Below, in pieces: positions 1-8,514 of a stretch of DNA of 8,514 nt (position 1 is its first letter; the number at the start of each line of letters is the position of its first letter). The translations under genes and the position numbers were made by a program. The DNA comes from a virus (Duplodnaviria; Heunggongvirae; Uroviricota; Caudoviricetes): IMG/VR virus record IMGVR_UViG_2703718829_000003. The stretch is one strand, 5' to 3'. The notes beneath the pieces are model-generated. The model searched no databases and had not been told where the DNA came from. It worked only from the letters and a program-made list of their open reading frames with translations.

Positions 1-1053
1 ATGACGTTACCACTAAGAGATTACTATCCTATTGAGCGCGCGGCAAAGTTATTAGACTGCGATATTGATGATCTTATTCATTGGGCTGTGACAGGCTGCA
101 TTCGTATTTGTATAAAAATTGAATCTGCATATGGAGTATTAAATATCCCAGATGAAAAAGATGTGGTTAATTTCGATTGTCTGCGTAAGTTTCTGGATTC
201 AGAACCATGTAAATCACGGTTATCTGACCTTGATGCCATTTCAGAAAGGGCGGCAGAACACCATGGTTTTAATTATATAAAAACCAAGTCGAGAATTATA
301 TTTGATTCAATGTGCGAATCTCTAAGTCATTCATATGTAGCGCCCAAATTTGGTGACATAGCAATTGATACTGCATTTGCTTTGTTAAATTATTATAACA
401 GGGGGTTATATTATGGGGAAAATTATCACATATATAGTGTATATCGAATAGCAACGGATGAAAGAGCTGTGGCAGTTGTACCACCAGTATTTAAAGGTAT
501 TCAAGAAAAATACCATAAGTATTTTGTTGAAATAGGCGGTATTTTCGCTTTGGGGGGAAGTTTTTTTGCCAACTATGATTTTAATAAGAAGTTTAAAGCC
601 AACCGAATAATTAATAGCAATATTATAATTGCTTCTGACGTTGATATACATATAGGAGTAATTGTTACTGAGGATGTTTCTTTTGATATTGGTGATTTAT
701 ATATCTTAAAGAGTGATTTTTTAAAAATACAAAATGCTACAAGCTCCAATAGCGAGTTAAGAAAAGATTATGTTAATCCATTGGCAGACACTTTATATTT
801 GTGTGCGGGTAACAATATATTAAGCTCTGAGGATGGAGAGAAAGATATATGCACCAATAAAAACAATATAGAACGATTATCTAAAACAATGAAGGATTTT
901 TTTCGTGCGATGCTTGTTATTCATTATAAAGAACTCGAAAACAATCCGGTAAAACTTGCTGATATATTGACCGCGGAAGCAAAAGAGGCAGGACTCAATA
1001 TGCGCTTTGATAAAAGTACTATATCAAGATGGATTAAGGCATCATCTCAGTAA
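1..1053 (+). CDS. Hypothetical protein, 350 aa; AT-rich cargo-like gene with HTH-like segments at both termini (possible DNA-binding regulator); function unknown
   Basis: Uninterrupted 350-codon ORF starting at the ATG at position 1 and ending at TAA 1051-1053. GC is visibly lower (roughly one third by eye) than the ~50% of the rest of the window. N-terminus (ERAAKLLDCDIDDLIHWAVTG) and C-terminus (GLNMRFDKSTISRWIK) resemble helix-turn-helix DNA-binding motifs. No catalytic motif recognised. Upstream signals lie outside the window. Confidence 0.6.
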   Translation: MTLPLRDYYPIERAAKLLDCDIDDLIHWAVTGCIRICIKIESAYGVLNIPDEKDVVNFDCLRKFLDSEPCKSRLSDLDAISERAAEHHGFNYIKTKSRIIFDSMCESLSHSYVAPKFGDIAIDTAFALLNYYNRGLYYGENYHIYSVYRIATDERAVAVVPPVFKGIQEKYHKYFVEIGGIFALGGSFFANYDFNKKFKANRIINSNIIIASDVDIHIGVIVTEDVSFDIGDLYILKSDFLKIQNATSSNSELRKDYVNPLADTLYLCAGNNILSSEDGEKDICTNKNNIERLSKTMKDFFRAMLVIHYKELENNPVKLADILTAEAKEAGLNMRFDKSTISRWIKASSQ

Positions 1054-1148: not shown

Positions 1149-1469
1149 ATGACTCAATCCGCATTCATTCCACCAACTCCAGAACAGCGCCGCACCATAC
1201 TCGCCGAGTATGGTTTTGACTGCGAAGAACGCATCAGGGAAGAGAAGTGTAAAAAAATGACCACGCTTTCACGCTCCCGGCGCTGGGAACTGGAGAAGAT
1301 CGGTGCTTTTCCTCCCCGTCACTCTTTGGGGCGTTGCTCATGTACCTGGCTGTTAAGTGATGTTTTGTGGTGGCTACGTAATCCGCCAGTTATTGCCAAA
1401 GTGAATAACCCATACGAAAACGCCAAAAAGAAAAGGGAGAGGGAATCCGGTAGCGCCAGAGTTGAATAA
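1149..1469 (+). CDS. alpA: AlpA-family (phage/prophage regulatory, MerR-like HTH) transcriptional regulator, 106 aa
   Basis: Strong Shine-Dalgarno (AGGGGGAAAT) immediately upstream of the ATG at 1149. The segment RIREEKCKKMTTLSRSRRWELEKIGAFPPRHSLGRCSCTWLLSDVLWWL follows the AlpA pattern (helix - LSRS-type turn - FP.P..LG - R...W...EI..WL). The HTH helix begins upstream of the internal Met at 1257, which supports the 1149 start. Confidence 0.7.
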   Translation: MTQSAFIPPTPEQRRTILAEYGFDCEERIREEKCKKMTTLSRSRRWELEKIGAFPPRHSLGRCSCTWLLSDVLWWLRNPPVIAKVNNPYENAKKKRERESGSARVE

Positions 1470-1735: not shown

Positions 1736-1765
1736 TTGACTCGCTTTTTTGTCATGGCGTATCGT
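1736..1765 (+). promoter_or_regulatory. Candidate sigma70 promoter for the small-ORF/primase/integrase operon, abutted by a 10-bp palindrome
   Basis: -35-like TTGACT (1736-1741), 18-bp spacer, -10-like TATCGT (1760-1765). The perfect palindrome GCAATATTGC (1726-1735) sits directly upstream and could be an operator. Assigned by eye only. Confidence 0.3.
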
Positions 1766-1835
1766 TTGCCCGCACCTCATAAAGCGGGTGCCGGGTTTAG
1801 CAGCCTGATTGACAAAGCGGGTAGCCGCTATATTT

Positions 1836-1914
1836 CCGTAATGCGGTTTTTTTGTGCCCGTAATACCACCCTTTCCCGTATTATGGCGGGGCGTAATGGG
1901 GAGGCCGTAAGGCC
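1836..1914 (+). repeat. Five direct CGTAAT-like heptamer repeats in the untranslated leader, ending in a GNRA-type hairpin
   Basis: CCGTAAT (1836-1842), CCGTAAT (1858-1864), CCGTATT (1876-1882), GCGTAAT (1891-1897), CCGTAAG (1905-1911). The last copy lies inside GGCC-GTAA-GGCC (1903-1914), a 4-bp stem with a GUAA tetraloop. A second hairpin follows (CTGGT 1917-1921 / ACCAG 1931-1935). Confidence 0.4.
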
Positions 1915-2017
1915 TGCTGGTTTCTTTGTCACCAGTCTGCTAACCCTGTTACGTCCCGCCACCATGTTTAGCAGCGTGCTGGCGAGACTCCGTAAATTAG
2001 ACAAAGGAGCCGCCAAA

Positions 2018-2191
2018 ATGGCTATATCAACACGCCCTGATTTTATCTGGCGCTTTATGCAGTGCCACGGTAAAAATATCCGCCTTCATACCGTTACCGC
2101 TGCCAGTGAGCGCGAAGCGCGCGCCATGCTTCCGGCATCCCGTCTGGTCTTTGTTGCCCGTATCCGTGTCCGGGAGGCGTGCCATGTTTAA
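2018..2191 (+). CDS. Small hypothetical protein, 57 aa (first gene of the small-ORF cluster); tentatively like the small conserved Icd-like/P4-family proteins
   Basis: ATG at 2018 is preceded by AAGGAG (2004-2009) with an 8-nt spacer. Product MAISTRPDFIWRFMQCHGKNIRLHTVTAASEREARAMLPASRLVFVARIRVREACHV. The upstream in-frame extension back to 1664 has no ribosome-binding site and poor protein-like composition. The family resemblance is from memory, not a search. Confidence 0.5.
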   Translation: MAISTRPDFIWRFMQCHGKNIRLHTVTAASEREARAMLPASRLVFVARIRVREACHV

Positions 2192-2839: not shown

Positions 2840-3145
2840 ATGTCTGAAAATCAGAATGTCCGCAATATATACAAAAAAGAATACGCTGGCTTTTTCACAG
2901 AAGATTCCATTGGCAGTCTTGAGGATGTAATAAATGTTATTGCTCTTTTTTCAGCATTGACAGGTGAAATTAATACCAAAGAGCGAATTGCTGTACAAAG
3001 CGATGAAATGGAATCATTAACTAACATTCTTTATCGGGAATTACGAGCGATTAAATCAGGAATGCATCTTTCTGGCGGGATTTTTTCATGGCACAAAGCT
3101 GAAGCCGCAGGGATTGCCCGGAAACAAGAAGTAACGAGTAATTAA
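2840..3145 (+). CDS. Hypothetical protein, 101 aa; visibly more AT-rich than its neighbours
   Basis: GGGGAG (2829-2834) upstream of the ATG at 2840; clean ORF to TAA 3143-3145. By position, immediately upstream of the primase, it is analogous to the small accessory genes that precede alpha in P4-type left operons, but no sequence-level identification was possible. Confidence 0.55.
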   Translation: MSENQNVRNIYKKEYAGFFTEDSIGSLEDVINVIALFSALTGEINTKERIAVQSDEMESLTNILYRELRAIKSGMHLSGGIFSWHKAEAAGIARKQEVTSN

Positions 3146-3189: not shown

Positions 3190-5859
3190 ATGAAACATAA
3201 CACCAGAAAAGAGATTATTAACCGTCTTATTCGTGATTACAACTTTAAAGAAGAAAATAACTATCTTCGTTATGGTGTTTGTCCGCAATGTGGAAAGAAG
3301 GAACTGTTTACCAGTCTTGAGAGGCCGTACATCGTACACTGTGGCCGCGAAAATAAATGCGGTGCAGACCTGTTGACCAAAGAACTTTACCCGGATGTGT
3401 TTTCGTCATGGTCAGATCGCTATATCAGCACGAAAGACGATCCATACGCAGCGGCGGCAGCTTATCTTCAGGAAGCGCGCAATATTGCTGTGGAGCCACT
3501 GAAAGGGGCATTTACTCAGGAGCGATACCAGGACAAGGAAAGCGGCGAACAAGCCGCTACCGTGCGTTTTACGCTGGCTGACGGCGTGTGGTGGGAGCGC
3601 ATCATAGACCGACCGGAACGCTTCGCTCGCAAGGCGAATTTTTCCGGCAGCTACAAGGGGCTGTGGTGGGCTTATCCGGGAGCTGATTTAAGCAAGGCCA
3701 AAGAAATCTGGATTTGTGAGGGTGTCTTTGATGCCATCAGCCTTAACCAGAATGGCATTGCGGCCGTTTCTGTCATGTCTGCCGTGAACTACCCTGATAA
3801 GGCGCTGGAAGAACTGGCGAAGCTGTGCGGAGATAATCCCCGTCCGGTTATTGTGTGGGCGCTGGATAACGGGCGTGCGGGTGAGCGTTACGCGAAAAAA
3901 CATGCAGAACGCAGCGCCGAAGGCGGCTGGAGAACGGCAGCGGCGTTACCGGGTGAAAACAACAATAAACGCGACTGGAATGATTTACACATCGCCGGAA
4001 AGCTACGTGGCCATGATGTGAAAAGATACCGTTATTACGGTGATTTATTGCTGGCGAAATCTCCGAGAGATAAGGCACTAATAATGTTTTCCTTTCGTGA
4101 GCGAAAGGAATTTCATTTTCCCTTTGATAACCGTGTGTTCTGGTTCAAGCTGGATATTGAGCGCCATATGAAGGCTGTTGAGCGTGTCATTAATGAGCGA
4201 AATGTTGACGAAGATGAAGCGCGCAAAATTGCACTCAAGGAATCCGGCGCTGTAAAAGAAATCGCAAACTGTAACCCAGTGCCGCTTTATTACATTCGAA
4301 ACAATGATACGGATGAAGCATGGTATTACTTCCGCATTACATTCCCGGATGGTGCTACGGTGAAAAACACCTTTACATCAGGGCAATTAACATCCGCATC
4401 TGAATTTAAAAAACGTCTGTTGCACGTAGCAAAAGGCGGCATTTATACCGGAACGACTACGCAACTTGACGCATTAATAAAAAATGACCTTCCCGCAATA
4501 AAAGAGGTTATTGGTCAGGATTTTATCGGATACAACAAGGCCATTGGGGCATGGTTGTTTAATGATATTGCTGTTTACAAGGGTAAAACTTATGAAATCA
4601 ATGACGAAGATTATTTTGAAATTGATGGCATAAACGCAAAACCATTAAGCGAAAAACCCACATTACAGATTAACTACAAAAAACCGGATGAATTTACAAC
4701 GTCATGGGTGGAAGATCTCTGGCTGGCTTTTGGCGAAAAGGGAATTATTACCCTGGCTTTCTGGCTGGGTTCGCTGTTCAGTGAACAAATCCGGGATAAA
4801 GAAGAATCCTTCCCCTTCCTTGAAGTCACCGGGGAGCCCGGAACGGGTAAATCAACATTGATTGATTTTTGCTGGCGGCTGTGCGGTCGTGACAACTATG
4901 AAGGCGTAGATCCAACCAAAGGATCAGAGGCGGGCTGGAAGCGCACCTTTGGACAGGTCGCCGGATTACCTGTTGTTCTGATTGAAGCGGACCGGGGAGA
5001 CAATGCGCAAAAAAGAGGTGCGTTTGACTTCGATAACCTGAAAAGTCTCTATAACGGCGGTGGTATCGGCGTTCGTGGTGTTAAGGCCAACAATAACAAC
5101 ACCTATGACCCGGATTTTAAGGGCGCTATCGTAATTGCGCAGAATGCGCGGGTAAACGCCTCGCCGGCAATTATCGAGCGCCTGATACGTATATACACCG
5201 ATAAAAAACGCCATTCACCTGATACCCGACTGGCGGCGAGACGACTGGAACTCTACCCCGTCGAGAAGGTATCGGGGTTTATTCATCGGGCGGTAAGTCA
5301 GGAACGGGCGATTATGCAAACGTTCCTGGAAGTGTCGCCGGCTGAAACGGAACGCCTTTGCGGATGCGAAAATATTCGCCATCCCCGTATCGCCAAAAAT
5401 CACGCGCAACTTATCGCGCTGGTCAGGGCGCTTAAATGCGTTATTGATATCCCGGCTGAATGGCTTGATGCCACATGTCTGGAACTGGAACAAATGGCAA
5501 CAGCGCAGGTTAAAGCGGCGGCGGCTGATTTACCGGAAGTGGTGGAGTTCTGGGAAGCGTTCGACTTCCTGGACGGCATAACAAAATACGGTGTAAACCA
5601 CTACGGCAAGGGATGCTGCGAAGGGATTGCTATCAGTATTCCGCAACTGGCACAGGCAGCCGCCATTCACCGCGTGGAGATCCGAACCGATCGCGAAATG
5701 ATTGAGTTGCTCGGGGCTGGACGCTCCCGACCGTTGACAGGTCGTAAAACAATTCGTAGTGAGGTGTCCAGACAGGCAAACGCCGGAAAAGGGGTAGCCG
5801 AGGCCAGAGAGCCGGAAGTACTGAAATGCCGGATATTCAGTTACAAGGAGGGGCGTTAA
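3190..5859 (+). CDS. Bifunctional DNA primase / helicase replication protein (Zn-ribbon + TOPRIM primase domain, C-terminal P-loop helicase-type NTPase; P4 alpha-like), 889 aa
   Basis: N-terminal zinc-ribbon CPQCGKK...HCGRENKCG; TOPRIM-type acidic motifs ICEGVFDAISL and VWALDNGRAGERYA; Walker A VTGEPGTGKSTLID (nt 4831-4857) and Walker B-like VVLIEADRG. First ATG in frame is at 3190; the ORF-track start at 3166 is a GTG inside the upstream hairpin. Confidence 0.9.
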   Translation: MKHNTRKEIINRLIRDYNFKEENNYLRYGVCPQCGKKELFTSLERPYIVHCGRENKCGADLLTKELYPDVFSSWSDRYISTKDDPYAAAAAYLQEARNIAVEPLKGAFTQERYQDKESGEQAATVRFTLADGVWWERIIDRPERFARKANFSGSYKGLWWAYPGADLSKAKEIWICEGVFDAISLNQNGIAAVSVMSAVNYPDKALEELAKLCGDNPRPVIVWALDNGRAGERYAKKHAERSAEGGWRTAAALPGENNNKRDWNDLHIAGKLRGHDVKRYRYYGDLLLAKSPRDKALIMFSFRERKEFHFPFDNRVFWFKLDIERHMKAVERVINERNVDEDEARKIALKESGAVKEIANCNPVPLYYIRNNDTDEAWYYFRITFPDGATVKNTFTSGQLTSASEFKKRLLHVAKGGIYTGTTTQLDALIKNDLPAIKEVIGQDFIGYNKAIGAWLFNDIAVYKGKTYEINDEDYFEIDGINAKPLSEKPTLQINYKKPDEFTTSWVEDLWLAFGEKGIITLAFWLGSLFSEQIRDKEESFPFLEVTGEPGTGKSTLIDFCWRLCGRDNYEGVDPTKGSEAGWKRTFGQVAGLPVVLIEADRGDNAQKRGAFDFDNLKSLYNGGGIGVRGVKANNNNTYDPDFKGAIVIAQNARVNASPAIIERLIRIYTDKKRHSPDTRLAARRLELYPVEKVSGFIHRAVSQERAIMQTFLEVSPAETERLCGCENIRHPRIAKNHAQLIALVRALKCVIDIPAEWLDATCLELEQMATAQVKAAAADLPEVVEFWEAFDFLDGITKYGVNHYGKGCCEGIAISIPQLAQAAAIHRVEIRTDREMIELLGAGRSRPLTGRKTIRSEVSRQANAGKGVAEAREPEVLKCRIFSYKEGR

Positions 5860-5861
5860 AC

Positions 5862-6866
5862 ATGCCGATCAGAAAGATGCATGATGGGCGGTGGCTACTC
5901 GATATCAGGCCATGCGGACGTAAAGGGAAGCGCATCAGAAGAATATTTGACAAAAAATCTATAGCTACAGCAACTGAACGGTACATCATAGCGAACGCCG
6001 AAAAGCGCGAGTTTATACAGGGCTATCGCGACCGGAGAACCCTTAGCGATTTACTGGAATTGTGGTGGGTTTATCACGGTCAGCACAGGCGAAAGGCAAA
6101 CACGGATAAACAGCAGCTTGGCAAAATTATTAATGAGCTTGGAGCTGACATGTTTGCGGTAGAACTCGACAAATTAAAAATCATTGCATGGCGATCGCAG
6201 AAAATTGCGGAAGGATTAAAGCCGTCCTCAGCAAACAGATACATGAACAGATTATCGGGGATGTTTACAGCCCTGAAAAAGATCGGTTTGTGGGATGCAG
6301 AGCATCCGGTTCGTGGTATTCCTGTTCTTTATGTAAAGCAGCGGGAAATGGCCTTTTTATCAAAAAACGAGGTCACATTGTTGCTTGACGGGCTGAATGG
6401 AGATCAACGAAGGGTTGCGCTCTTGTGTCTTTGTACCGGAGCCCGCTGGAGTGAGGCCAGCAGATTGCATGGAGAGCAAATAGTTCATAATAGAATAACG
6501 TTTCTGGAAACCAAAAACGGTAGAAAAAGAACGGTGCCTGTGTCGCAGGAAATATGCGATGCCGTAAAAACAAAAGAAACCGGGCGACTGTTTGATGTGA
6601 AGTACAGAGAGTTTTGCCGGGCATTAAAAAAAATAAAACCCGATTTACCGAGGGGGCAGGCTGCGCATGTATTGCGGCATACATTCGCCAGTCACTTTGT
6701 GATGAACGGTGGCAACATTCTTGCGCTACAAAAAATCCTTGGGCATGCGACAATTCAGCAGACTATGGCATACGCACATTTTGCACCGGATTATCTGGCA
6801 GATGCCATGAGATTTAACCCGGTAGCCAACATAGTGATCACCGAAGAAAAAGAGCCAGCAGAGTAA
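5862..6866 (+). CDS. int: Tyrosine site-specific recombinase (small phage-type integrase, P2-Int-like size), 334 aa
   Basis: AGGAGG (5846-5851) upstream of the ATG at 5862, which lies 2 nt after the primase stop. Catalytic signature present: Arg box TGARWSEASRL, HVLRHTFASHF (H-x-x-R), and nucleophile Tyr in LGHATIQQTMAYAHFAPDY. N-terminus MPIRKMHDGRWLLDIRPCGRKGKRIRRIF is typical of small P2-type integrases. Confidence 0.9.
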   Translation: MPIRKMHDGRWLLDIRPCGRKGKRIRRIFDKKSIATATERYIIANAEKREFIQGYRDRRTLSDLLELWWVYHGQHRRKANTDKQQLGKIINELGADMFAVELDKLKIIAWRSQKIAEGLKPSSANRYMNRLSGMFTALKKIGLWDAEHPVRGIPVLYVKQREMAFLSKNEVTLLLDGLNGDQRRVALLCLCTGARWSEASRLHGEQIVHNRITFLETKNGRKRTVPVSQEICDAVKTKETGRLFDVKYREFCRALKKIKPDLPRGQAAHVLRHTFASHFVMNGGNILALQKILGHATIQQTMAYAHFAPDYLADAMRFNPVANIVITEEKEPAE

Positions 6867-6895
6867 CCCGCAGAACGCTACATTCACAGCAAAAG

Positions 6896-6921
6896 AGGTC
6901 AGTTTCCCGCTGACCTTTTTT
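6896..6921 (+). terminator. Rho-independent terminator closing the primase-integrase operon
   Basis: Stem GGTCAG (6897-6902) / CTGACC (6910-6915), 7-nt loop, followed by T6 (6916-6921) and preceded by A4. Lies 30 nt after the integrase stop. Confidence 0.6.
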
Positions 6922-7117
6922 GTTGGCCAGAACCAACGGTAACAGCAATGCAATGGTGGTCATATTGCAGTAGTGCCGCCATCAATTTTTTGCTTCCCCT
7001 GATTATCAGAAAGAGTCAAACAGTGGCGAGATACATTTCAATCACAGAGAGTTAATGAGAGTGATACAGAGTAAGTGGGTTTAATTAACATTTTAAAGGG
7101 TCGCGCTAAAGTTTGGG

Positions 7118-7431
7118 GGGGGGTGCGCAAAGCGGTTACAACGGTTACAAATTTAAAATCACTTATTTTTGCATTATATATCAATACATTATAACTGGTC
7201 GGATGAGTTACAAAAGCGGTTACAACGCGGTTACATGTAACCGTTTTGTTAGGTTACAGGCGGTTACAGGTTAAGTTTTTAATTGATTGATAATAAAGTG
7301 CTTTTTGAAACCTGTAACCGTTGTAACCGCAGTGTAACCGCAAAGCGGTTACAAACAATATCCATTAAAATCATGCTGTTAAGTGGTGTTTTTGACTGTT
7401 GTAACCGTTGTAACCGCTTTGCGCACCCCCC
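7118..7431. repeat. Iteron array (at least 13 copies of CGGTTACA / TGTAACCG) bounded by a perfect 33-bp inverted repeat; putative origin of replication
   Basis: The inverted-repeat arms 7118-7150 and 7399-7431 are exact reverse complements (GGGGGGTGCGCAAAGCGGTTACAACGGTTACAA). Octamer copies in + orientation begin near 7133, 7142, 7217, 7228, 7252 (GGTTACA only), 7261 and 7346; in inverted orientation at 7236, 7313, 7322, 7333, 7400 and 7409. A 16-bp perfect palindrome CGGTTACATGTAACCG lies at 7228-7243. AT-rich spacers separate the clusters. Confidence 0.5.
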
Positions 7432-7657
7432 ACCGGATTATGAGGCAGAGCCCCAAAACAACTGGCCTGACCTCTAACAAAAATGCAACATCAATCATTG
7501 ATTTTTTGGGGCTGTCAGTCACGGGGAGTTGCCCTGTTGTTTGGCAGAAAAATGAAGTATGTACATGCGCGGCGGGGATGGTAAAAAACGTAATACACGC
7601 GGCGCAGTTGCCATAAAAAATCTCTCAAAAGCACTCTTTTTGACGCTATTGTTCATC

Positions 7658-7686
7658 TGCACAAAAGTGCACAAATTTGCACAATT
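7658..7686 (+). repeat. Three tandem TGCACAA repeats with exact 10-bp periodicity, plus a fourth copy at 7749-7757; candidate operator
   Basis: TGCACAA starts at 7658, 7668 and 7678; GTGCACAAA recurs at 7749-7757. A related imperfect palindrome GTGCAtttagTGCAC occurs at 1617-1631. Confidence 0.35.
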
Positions 7687-8047
7687 TTTTAGAGTAACTT
7701 TTTGCCCATCCGGCCCAGTACTGGCGCGCCCGGAGGGCGATTTCGTGCGTGCACAAAAAACGGTGAGTTTTTCGCGCGCAGGTGACGGGGGAACAGCACG
7801 CGTTTCAGGGGGTAAATTACATTTTCGCTAAAGGCTGCGGGAATGCCCCGACCGGGTTAGTTTTATCGCCAGCCAGAGCCGTTCTTACGGCAAGAGAGAA
7901 CTGATACGGGGAATGTGACGAGTGAGCATGGGAACGGCGCGCCCGTGCGTAATACGCGGCGACTGCTGCGGGTTTATTTGATACAGCCAGAGGGGGGCGG
8001 CAGAAGATATAATAGGTTAAATTTCACACCAGTAAGAGGAGCGTGAT

Positions 8048-8230
8048 ATGTCTTTCCCTTGCCCGGCCTGTGGCGCTTCAGCCCGCACCCGTGGTCGTTC
8101 GTTGGAAGAACACGAACAAAACATCTACAGAACGTATTACCAGTGCAATAATATTGAGTGTGGGGCTTGTTTTTGTACGCTTGAGTCGTTTGTACGCATT
8201 ACTAAGCGCAGGAAGTCGAAAACTTCATAG
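8048..8230 (+). CDS. ogr: Ogr/Delta-family zinc-finger transcriptional activator homologue, 60 aa
   Basis: AGGAG (8036-8040) 7 nt before the ATG at 8048. Product MSFPCPACGASARTRGRSL...YYQCNNIECGACFCTLESF matches the Ogr/Delta signature (C-P-x-C ... ARTxR ... Y-x-Q-C-x-N-x-x-C ... F-x-T-x-ES) with four Cys ligands. Confidence 0.8.
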   Translation: MSFPCPACGASARTRGRSLEEHEQNIYRTYYQCNNIECGACFCTLESFVRITKRRKSKTS

Positions 8231-8280: not shown

Positions 8281-8514
8281 TTACGTCGTGTGGTTCTGGT
8301 CATTTGCCCAGGCCCACACATCCCCCGCTACATTGCGCCCGTTGCAGTCTTCTTCCTGCGTTTCCCCGGCCTTAATTCCCTGACTGATAAACATTCTGAC
8401 GCACTGGGAGTAGTTCATCTCTCTGTCCTGACATATCTGATTTATTTTATGGTCGATTTCGTGCGGGATACGAATACAGCGTAATACGCATCGCATTTTC
8501 TTTTGTTTTTTCAT
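8281..8514 (-). CDS. Small hypothetical protein, 77 aa; possible ribbon-helix-helix-type DNA-binding regulator; start coincides with the window edge
   Basis: Minus-strand ORF convergent with the ogr-like gene, with a 50-bp gap. Basic N-terminus MKKQKKMRCVLRCIRIPHEIDHKINQICQDREMNYSQCVRMFISQGIKAG is compatible with a beta-strand / helix / helix fold. The ATG is the last codon of the window, so the ribosome-binding site and any N-terminal extension are unseen. An alternative start is Met7 (8494-8496). Confidence 0.45.
   Translation of the reverse strand: MKKQKKMRCVLRCIRIPHEIDHKINQICQDREMNYSQCVRMFISQGIKAGETQEEDCNGRNVAGDVWAWANDQNHTT

Follow-up and report, generated by a model that had tools for sequence, protein, structure and literature searches.

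What use could a phage satellite, already equipped with an integrase of its own, make of a second integrase of the type encoded by its helper phages? The question is raised by a stretch of 8,514 nucleotides (virus record IMGVR_UViG_2703718829_000003 of IMG/VR, Caudoviricetes; hereafter the window), in which a primase-helicase gene is followed by a gene for a P2-type tyrosine integrase (Int). The window is 100.0% identical over its full length to eight complete Escherichia coli chromosomes and forms the central 8.5 kb of a ~13-kb integrated element (~12.96 kb by comparison with the empty site of K-12). Its nature as a satellite of P2-family (P88-like, Xuanwuvirus) phages is well supported, and its anatomy, the homology of Int, the pattern of Int alleles and the lack of a cis site are established. 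The presence of a helper-type Int without its DNA site suggests that the satellite may manipulate the integration or excision of its helper.

The P2-type integrase and its operon

The int gene is situated at the end of what appears to be the early operon of the satellite, whose signals and two distal genes are as follows (window coordinates):

1736..1765, + strand: promoter-like site TTGACT-18-TATCGT, a consensus match only, the sole + strand site between 821 and 7085; head of the early operon
3190..5859, + strand: primase-helicase with a Zn-finger, Toprim and P-loop
5862..6866, + strand: P2-type tyrosine integrase of 334 amino acids (aa), proposed as a helper-cognate second recombinase; swappable cassette at roughly 5854-6640
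6887..6925, bidirectional in form: intrinsic terminator with a 17-bp stem and a U-run (-25 kcal/mol, z = -4.7), ending the early operon

The primase-helicase open reading frame (ORF) extends from the ATG at 3190 to the TAA at 5857-5859, and after the dinucleotide AC the integrase begins with the ATG at 5862. The Shine-Dalgarno sequence of the integrase, AAGGAGG (5845-5851), lies within the last primase codons, 10 nt ahead of this ATG. A mechanical list of ORFs also offers an ATG at 5826; the homologous start, found by alignment with phage integrases (MSIKKL...), is 5862, which is also the start given by RefSeq. The spacing of 2 nt and the ribosome-binding site (RBS) inside the primase 3' end had both been read from the window by the first-pass annotation, and both hold beyond it. 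Nine satellites, all of E. coli, were compared: L001 (the window's element), L004, L015, L016, L017 and L022-L025. The P2-type int directly adjoins the primase gene in all nine, and the junction follows the pattern ...CAAGGAG(G/A)..TAA-NN-ATG, the two genes being 2 nt apart in seven satellites, overlapping as ATGA in another and 15 nt apart in the ninth; the integrase Shine-Dalgarno sequence within the primase 3' end is kept in 8/9 relatives. Sequestration of the RBS, looked for at the junction as a sign of strict translational coupling, was not indicated, the predicted RNA fold being not significant (z = -1.6); the integrase has a strong Shine-Dalgarno sequence of its own.

Since a promoter scan found no sigma-70-like site on the + strand between 1765 and 7085, and the integrase gene is followed by a hairpin with a U-run, primase and integrase are probably co-transcribed. 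The early operon would then be made up of the promoter-like site at ~1736, a C4 antisense-RNA immunity region, icd, four small ORFs, the primase-helicase gene, int and the terminator, in agreement with the earlier view of int as the distal gene of the replication operon.

The assignment of Int to the P2 type was borne out by its Pfam domains (Int_N and Phage_integrase) and by its similarity to the P2 integrase (PDB 5c6k, E 4.8e-80) and the HP1 integrase (E 4e-48). Its identity to the Int proteins of Chuche, Xuanwuvirus P884B11 and PhiR44_2 is 82%, and the same 82% class includes the Int of a bona fide prophage with the order Cox-C-Int adjoining pdxB. Every copy retains all the catalytic residues R..K..HxxR..H..Y and is free of stop codons. 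Between each satellite allele and its closest phage allele, the nonsynonymous divergence (dN) is 0.12-0.18 and the synonymous one (dS) is saturated, in most segments to the extent that no dN/dS ratio was obtained for them; wherever computable, dN/dS is at most 0.13. Judged by these sequence features, Int is functional and under purifying selection, not a remnant.

The integrases of P2, 186, HP1 and the P88-like phages (Peduoviridae) share with the satellite Int the Int_N and catalytic domains and the intact catalytic residues. In those phages int follows the repressor gene C in a lysogenic operon and abuts attP, and the P' arm repeats are contained in the int 3' end. The satellite int, in contrast, follows the primase gene in a lytic/replication operon, has a different C-terminal tail and no attP. 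In P2-type integrases the arm sites are bound by the N-domain, while site specificity is set by the core-binding domain; the arm consensus is tgTGGaCa (PMC3448106). The satellite tail (NPVAN..EKEPAE) departs from that of the phage proteins at precisely the place where the P' arm sites are embedded in the phage gene.

The int cassette and the attachment sites

The window's primase gene is present at a nucleotide identity of at least 89% in 66 of 5426 complete E. coli genomes. All nine satellites compared possess an edge integrase, AlpA, an Icd-like gene, the primase, an intact P2-type Int and a P2-family capsid gene, and ogr is annotated in eight of them. The primases of eight of the nine are 90-99% identical to that of the window; the most distant is that of L017 (60%, or 65% at the nucleotide level). 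The Int proteins are far more diverse and fall into five alleles with mutual identities of 43-59%. Whichever two elements are compared, their nucleotide homology is lost at ~5854-5913 and regained at ~6636-6641, the latter point being Int codon ~259, at the HxxR box. The cassette thus delimited (the first ~260 codons) covers the arm- and core-binding domains and reaches halfway into the catalytic domain. L001 and L004 differ only in this cassette, the flanks being 96% and 99% identical. The alleles and their closest phage relatives are:

Allele A (window/L001, L023, L025): Chuche, Xuanwuvirus P884B11, PhiR44_2 and the pdxB prophage, 82%
Allele B (L004): P88, 77%
Allele C (L016, L024): 569R5, 705R2 and Entero_P88(23), 85%
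Allele D (L015, L022): no close phage in the collection searched, 57% at best
Allele E (L017): Salmonella SEN4/SEN5 and Enterobacter phiT5282H, 82.5%, full length

Four alleles (A, B, C and E) thus each match the Int of a different P2-family phage at 77-85%, and the phages matching alleles A and C are those carrying a cos block shared with the satellite. Alleles A-D have in common the satellite-specific last ~75 codons, joined to helper-type specificity domains. The satellite alleles are not monophyletic, i.e., not each other's closest relatives, and therefore the slot was refilled repeatedly, by the sequence relationships at least four times, with phage-type integrases. No P2-type int was found downstream of distant relatives of the primase (36-43% identical) at seven loci (Rhodoferax, Marinobacter, Comamonas, Pseudohongiella, two of Cardiobacterium, and Marinobacterium); on this comparison, the primase-int pair is specific to the enterobacterial satellite lineage.

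The integration of the satellite itself is accounted for by a different enzyme. In strain STEC379 (locus L001) the element sits between gcd and hpt, and comparison with the empty K-12 site identified at both its ends a 24-bp direct repeat, ATGAAACATACTGTAGAAGTAATG, corresponding to the first 24 nt of hpt, so that the search for boundary repeats proposed along with the first description succeeded. The two att copies are located at L001 10603-10626 and 23562-23585, and the element thereby gives hpt a new upstream region. An edge integrase of 399 aa, of the P4 type (Arm-DNA-bind_3 and Phage_integrase domains), is encoded at L001 10785-11984, its gene stopping 16 nt short of window position 1. Its identity to P4 Int is 22%, and that of the L015 edge integrase to P4 Int is 53%. 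Pairs of GTGTATCAAT are found near both ends of the element (L001 ~10755-10780 and ~23480-23505) and look like arm sites of the edge integrase.

These data bear on the view that the P2-type Int is the sole integrase of the satellite, relocated into the replication operon in place of the larger, separately transcribed edge integrase of P4. Int is indeed the only integrase within the window and its position is as described, but the canonical edge integrase with its att duplication and arm repeats stands immediately upstream, and the view, already contradicted, retains a very small probability. All nine satellites are integrated at hpt or at tRNA-Arg, in each case matching the edge integrase. Allele A occurs at hpt (L001) and at tRNA-Arg (L023, L025), the L023 protein being identical to that of the window; allele D is also found at both sites, and hpt hosts alleles A, B, C and D. 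Because one allele occurs at two sites and four alleles at one, the P2-type Int does not set the site of the satellite. As the chromosomal site tracks the edge integrase and not the P2-type Int, the latter is to be regarded as an additional recombinase, whose target is not the satellite's own att.

Nor does the element contain a recognisable site of the helper kind. In the attP of phage Chuche, one tandem pair of GTGTCCAC repeats with a period of 11 lies within the 3' end of int and another 250 bp further on, and between the two is a core in the pdxB 5' end. A motif scan of the 12.98-kb element found no GTGTCCAC, and no tandem tgTGGaCa pair was present in it even with one mismatch allowed (Chuche has two pairs, period 11). 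BLAST of the element with a word size of 7 gave no similarity to the Chuche attP or its core beyond the int coding region. A helper attP hidden in the satellite was rejected on these grounds. Moreover, no cis site co-varies with the Int allele, because L001 and L004 differ only in the int cassette.

The GGTTACA repeats found downstream of int were also considered as arm sites of Int and rejected: the same repeats accompany four Int alleles, and their change in L016 goes with the primase C-terminus.

Proposed recombination of the helper in trans and competing explanations

The target and the direction of the recombination carried out by Int we infer from these sequence relationships. Action in trans on helper att sites, with the allele deciding which helper sub-lineages can be exploited, is the best explanation for a helper-type Int in a satellite without attP, though a tentative one, with somewhat less than an even chance of being right. 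It is the most plausible because Int has helper-type specificity domains, the satellite has no attP of its own for it, and its expression would be that of a lytic/replication operon. The P2-type Int would be a copy of the helper lineage's integrase that lost the helper attP. When the satellite early operon is on, either derepressed or soon after infection of a lysogen, helper-cognate Int would be supplied and, together with helper Cox and integration host factor (IHF), could excise the helper prophage. The Cox protein of P2 represses the Pc operon carrying C and int, acts as the excision directionality factor and inhibits integrative recombination (PMC3936717). At the phage loci examined int lies beside C in a lysogenic arrangement, as in the P2 Pc operon; because int sits in this Cox-repressed operon, the supply of phage Int would be cut as the phage turns lytic. 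The Int cassette would then define the helper sub-lineages that the satellite can mobilise.

Several observations weigh against this explanation. P4 exploits an unexcised P2 prophage, so that excision of the helper is not obviously needed, and it might even raise the competition for packaging. A terminator-like hairpin with a T-run is located at 2811-2832, inside the proposed operon, between the third and the fourth small ORF; by analogy with P4 immunity, it could be a regulated attenuation point. Allele D is without a close phage counterpart in the phage collection (57% for the best match), and the saturation of synonymous sites in comparisons of satellite with phage alleles means that the alleles were not acquired recently from the known phages. 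When E. coli genomes were searched with a chimeric query composed of the primase and cox-C-int, a Chuche-type prophage was present in 17 of 60 carriers and in ~295 of 5360 other genomes (about 5%), an association that is not allele-matched and is confounded by a clonal series of enterotoxigenic E. coli (ETEC); no such prophage is present in the eight genomes whose element is 100% identical. Finally, the relatives integrated at tRNA-Arg carry one tandem CGTGGACA-ATA-TGTGGACA pair with a period of 11, conforming to the P2-type arm consensus, which could be a cis arm site. It is found ~60 nt past the P4-type edge integrase gene (L015 4597-4615, L023 4590-4608, L025 6141-6159), ~0.03 such pairs being expected per element, and accompanies the edge module irrespective of the Int allele; it could represent a solitary arm site or a weak terminator, or have arisen by chance.

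Among the competing explanations, anti-helper interference ranks second and is considered unlikely. According to it, an excess of satellite Int would force an infecting or excised helper genome into attB, or else the C-terminal third with the tail would make defective mixed multimers with helper Int; the helper DNA would not be a packageable circle, and late genes would still be on through Ogr. The homology, the tracking of alleles and the lack of a cis site count for it equally as for excision of the helper in trans, and the grafting of a satellite-specific C-terminus onto helper-type specificity domains in alleles A-D also speaks in its favour; moreover, satellites commonly interfere with their helpers, and the P2 terminase packages monomeric circles. 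However, all catalytic residues are kept, which a pure poison would not need, and the inhibition of integrative recombination by Cox (PMC3936717) makes forced integration during lytic growth doubtful. Next comes the possibility, also rather unlikely, that Int is an alternative integration module placing the satellite at the helper attB or at helper hybrid att sites by means of an unrecognised attP-like site. The integrase is intact and conserved, and the tandem pair of the tRNA-Arg relatives resembles a P2-type arm, but all nine satellites compared sit at hpt or tRNA-Arg, in keeping with their edge integrases, and the alleles assort independently of the site. In addition, the window's element lacks arm pairs and a core of the helper kind, between L001 and L004 no sequence other than the int cassette changes with the allele, and expression from a lytic/replication operon is the opposite of that of phage int in the lysogenic Pc operon.

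A role of Int in resolving the dimers formed in satellite replication, near the origin, in the manner of Cre/loxP of P1 or Xer/cer, would yield monomeric circles that can be packaged from cos. In its favour, int is placed between the replication gene and the putative origin and would be co-expressed with the primase, and resolution would be useful in P2-type packaging, which acts on monomeric circles. This explanation is nevertheless improbable: the alleles are only 43-59% identical in the arm- and core-binding domains beside identical or near-identical downstream DNA (99% in L001 and L004), a heterobivalent phage integrase with an arm-binding N-domain is found with no arm repeats present, and repeated import of phage-like alleles would be unexpected for a housekeeping resolvase. 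Least credible is an invertible DNA switch, in which Int would flip the 248-bp segment between two 36-nt inverted repeats, as FimB/FimE flip fimS. The repeats are 97% complementary and lie near a tyrosine recombinase gene, but they do not co-vary with the Int allele, and the iterons between them are packed in both orientations as in P4 crr. A query with 7151-7398 inverted was covered over at least 80% in none of 64 E. coli genomes, all of which matched it as two flanks and an opposite-strand middle, and the switch was rejected.

Recombination of helper att sites in trans by Int can be extended into a fuller account, namely that this satellite family captured and re-captured a helper integrase without attP into its lytic operon, that Int recombines the helper att sites in trans, excising or trapping the helper, and that the cassettes determine the helper range. 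The element would then be the first satellite controlling the site-specific recombination of its helper, and a member of a new, capsid-encoding lineage of satellites of P88-like Peduoviridae. Taken as a whole, this account is plausible, but we would sooner expect some part of it to fail than all of it to hold.

Anatomy of the satellite and its relation to P4

The element begins with attL, the 399-aa edge integrase gene, ORF350, alpA, the promoter-like site, the a1/b1-isrK-C4 region and the Icd-like ORF; its middle part consists of four small ORFs, the primase-helicase gene, int, the terminator, the iteron cluster, cos and ogr; and it ends with the divergent 77-aa ORF, a 236-aa ORF, a P2-family major capsid gene, MazEF and attR. 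Besides those of the early operon listed above, the window contains the following features:

1..1053, + strand: ORF350, between the edge integrase gene and alpA; G+C content 31-36% (vs ~45-55% for the rest of the element)
1149..1469, + strand: AlpA/Vis-like regulator and excisionase (PF05930, E 3.3e-7; phrog_2790, E 4.6e-30; 32% identical to P4 orf88)
1759..1966, + strand: immunity RNA region, with a1/b1 target-like (1759-1811), isrK-like (1772-1853) and C4 antisense RNA (1879-1966) stretches
2042..2191, + strand: Icd-like coding part (NF033153, E 2.4e-14, at residues 127-169, the C-terminal 43 residues, of the annotated 175-aa coding sequence)
2184-2366, 2369-2557, 2554-2772 and 2840-3145, + strand: four small early ORFs with no assigned function
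7115..7434, no strand: iteron cluster and putative origin, with 13 GGTTACA copies, AT-rich spacers and a 36-nt inverted repeat (7115-7150 and 7399-7434)
7657..7823, no strand: cos region, containing TGCACAA three times; candidate cohesive-end site of 19 nt, GGTGACGGGGGAACAGCAC (7781-7799)
8048..8230, + strand: Ogr/Delta-family zinc-finger activator of 60 aa (PF04606, E 3.3e-11; one CX2C...CX4C finger)
8281..8514, - strand: 77-aa ORF, divergent from the capsid operon; weak RelB/DinJ-like match (E 0.007), below the cut-off

The reading of the element as a satellite of a P2-like helper, proposed in the first-pass annotation from AlpA and the Ogr/Delta homologue, both of which are present, now rests on the cos block shared with helpers, the iteron origin, the C4-type antisense RNA immunity and the P2-family capsid gene. 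In P88-like phages, a non-coding segment ~900 bp away from the portal gene shows 83% identity to window 7657-7823, and the block is common to Entero_P88(23), 569R5, 705R2 and PhiR44_2. In the alignment, conserved blocks (the three TGCACAA repeats, CGTGCGTGCACAAAAAA and GCGCGCAGGTGACGGGGGAACAGC) surround a divergent spacer. This part of the window is regarded as the cos region because its last conserved block, GCGCGCAGGTGACGGGGGAACAGC, resembles the 19-nt cohesive end of P2. The cos of L017 appears nearer to canonical P2. A 90-aa 'hypothetical protein' annotated in RefSeq at 7559-7831 overlaps the conserved cos blocks, has no family match and is probably not a real gene.

GGTTACA occurs 14 times in the window, with 0.79 expected, and 13 of these copies, in both orientations, fall within 7134-7415; the edges of the cluster also carry G-runs. 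The iterons are comparable to the crr/ori iterons that follow alpha in P4, and by this analogy the cluster would be the replication origin. GGTTACA is kept across four Int alleles (46-54% identical to one another), while L016 has nine copies of GGTCACA (12674-13393) instead. The divergence of the L016 primase is concentrated in the C-terminal ~190 residues, and the replacement of GGTTACA by GGTCACA together with the change of the primase C-terminus suggests a switch of origin specificity. The primase-helicase matches phrog_1139 ('DNA primase', E 7e-296) over its full length and Toprim_2 (E 1.8e-12), and has the Walker A motif GEPGTGKS.

The C4 RNA gene is located upstream of icd at the head of the operon, as in the C4/CI antisense-RNA immunity of P1, P7 and P4. 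In an Rfam scan of the window, C4 (RF01695) scored 79.7 bits (gathering score 45) and isrK 52.1 bits (gathering score 50), while c4-a1b1 with 29 bits was under its gathering score. The 175-aa 'Icd-like protein' coding sequence of RefSeq (1664-2191) spans the C4, isrK-like and a1/b1-like stretches and is, from these matches, probably over-extended across RNA genes. The fourth small ORF, of 101 aa (2840-3145), has the same position as a P4 Epsilon antirepressor homologue (47%) that directly precedes the primase gene in L017 (8674-8937), but no similarity to it. ORF350 has no Pfam, PHROG or PADLOC family match, and none of the other unassigned ORFs gave a PADLOC hit; its position resembles the accessory/defence hotspots of P4-like satellites.

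The single finger of the short Ogr had been thought unusual. It is not, as the 72-aa Ogr of P2 itself has a single finger and a tandem occurs only in P4 Delta. At two Cardiobacterium loci (L012 9395-9979 and L013 9398-9979) an Ogr-like zinc-finger ORF directly precedes a 36%-identical primase homologue, which suggests an old association of this primase family with Ogr-type regulators.

The major capsid protein (423 aa, P2 family, PF05125, E 2e-72) is encoded just downstream of the window, next to the 236-aa ORF (together L001 20682-22663). No family match was found for that ORF or for the ~120-aa N-terminal extension of the capsid protein. In L015, L016 and L023 a 350-aa capsid gene and a 291-aa ORF are placed instead between alpA and icd. 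The capsid-bearing element looks like an undescribed capsid-encoding satellite of P2-family phages. The P2 late-promoter motif TGT-N12-ACA is absent upstream of the capsid operon. The motif CGTAATAC occurs nine times in L001, with 0.63 expected, and seven of them are grouped near cos, ogr and the promoter region upstream of the capsid genes (window 7589, 7948, 8278 on the - strand, and 8480; L001 20572, and 20595 and 20623 on the - strand); they are candidate sites for a regulator. The right-end cargo differs among the satellites, being MazEF in the window's type and Hok/Gef in others, and in one copy (GF60) an IS21-family insertion lies between cos and ogr (differences seen at L001 22707-23299, L015 14110-14253 and L025 14078-16385).

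Like P4, the element is an integrated unit of ~11-13 kb, and it shares with P4 an edge tyrosine integrase containing an arm-binding domain, an AlpA/Vis-like regulator, a P2-type cos and an Ogr/Delta activator; in both, the early operon opens with a C4/CI-type antisense RNA and closes with a primase-helicase, and the replication gene is followed by iterons of both orientations. P4-like satellites are, however, defined by seven core components in SatelliteFinder (PMC10085698). Those present here are the edge integrase, the AlpA-type regulator and Ogr/Delta, and BLAST of the window's Ogr against P4 Delta was not significant. In tblastn of P4 proteins against the 12.98-kb element, the integrase (22%), Vis/AlpA (32%) and alpha alone were matched; for alpha only a 27-residue Walker A patch aligned (E 0.002), so that an orthologue was not found and the primase function is analogous. 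No hit was obtained for Epsilon (Ash), and none at E<0.01 for Sid or Psu. The inventory of remaining genes that had been called for thus yielded cos and a P2-family capsid gene, but no sid/psu-like capsid-remodelling genes. The element further differs from P4 in its own P2-family capsid protein with the 236-aa partner, in a cos and an Int that point to P88-like helpers and not to P2 itself, and in the helper-type integrase between primase and terminator, where P4 has only a terminator, then crr, attP and its own int. Although similar to P4 in the way it works, it falls outside the P4-like satellites as defined by the seven components. Because it has at most four of these components, the family would probably escape satellite-finding tools that rely on Sid, Psu and Epsilon, and automated annotation labels its Int simply 'phage integrase'.

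Capsid-forming and Gram-negative phage-inducible chromosomal islands (cfPICI and PICI) have the same order of int, alpA and primase module, and the former encode their own capsid protein. The element as annotated differs from cfPICI in having no portal, head-tail adaptor or terminase genes, and its capsid, cos, Ogr and Int are of the P2 type, while the helpers of PICI are lambdoid. A functional analogy only is provided by TLC-phi of Vibrio cholerae, a satellite of CTX-phi affecting its partner phage's site-specific integration by restoring dif for the host XerCD recombinases; TLC-phi encodes no helper-type recombinase. In the accessible literature, most subscription journals lying outside the search, neither a satellite with a second integrase of the helper type, nor a P2-capsid satellite, nor this lineage was found described.

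In a recent survey, genetic exchange between P2-family phages and satellites was reported to be lacking for defence genes, P2 and P4 being named there (PMC13586616); the int cassette is an example of genetic exchange between these two kinds of elements. Satellites are known to act on their helpers by antirepressors, late-gene activators, capsid-size factors and the redirection of packaging. The system is directly testable, as the cultured phages Chuche, PhiR44_2, P88 and 569R5 match the satellites in Int and cos, and the satellites are carried by 66 complete E. coli genomes. If Int does act on helper att sites in trans, the hypervariable Int cassette would be explained as a determinant of helper range, and a satellite timing the exit or entry of its helper prophage would add a new layer to the conflict between helpers and satellites.

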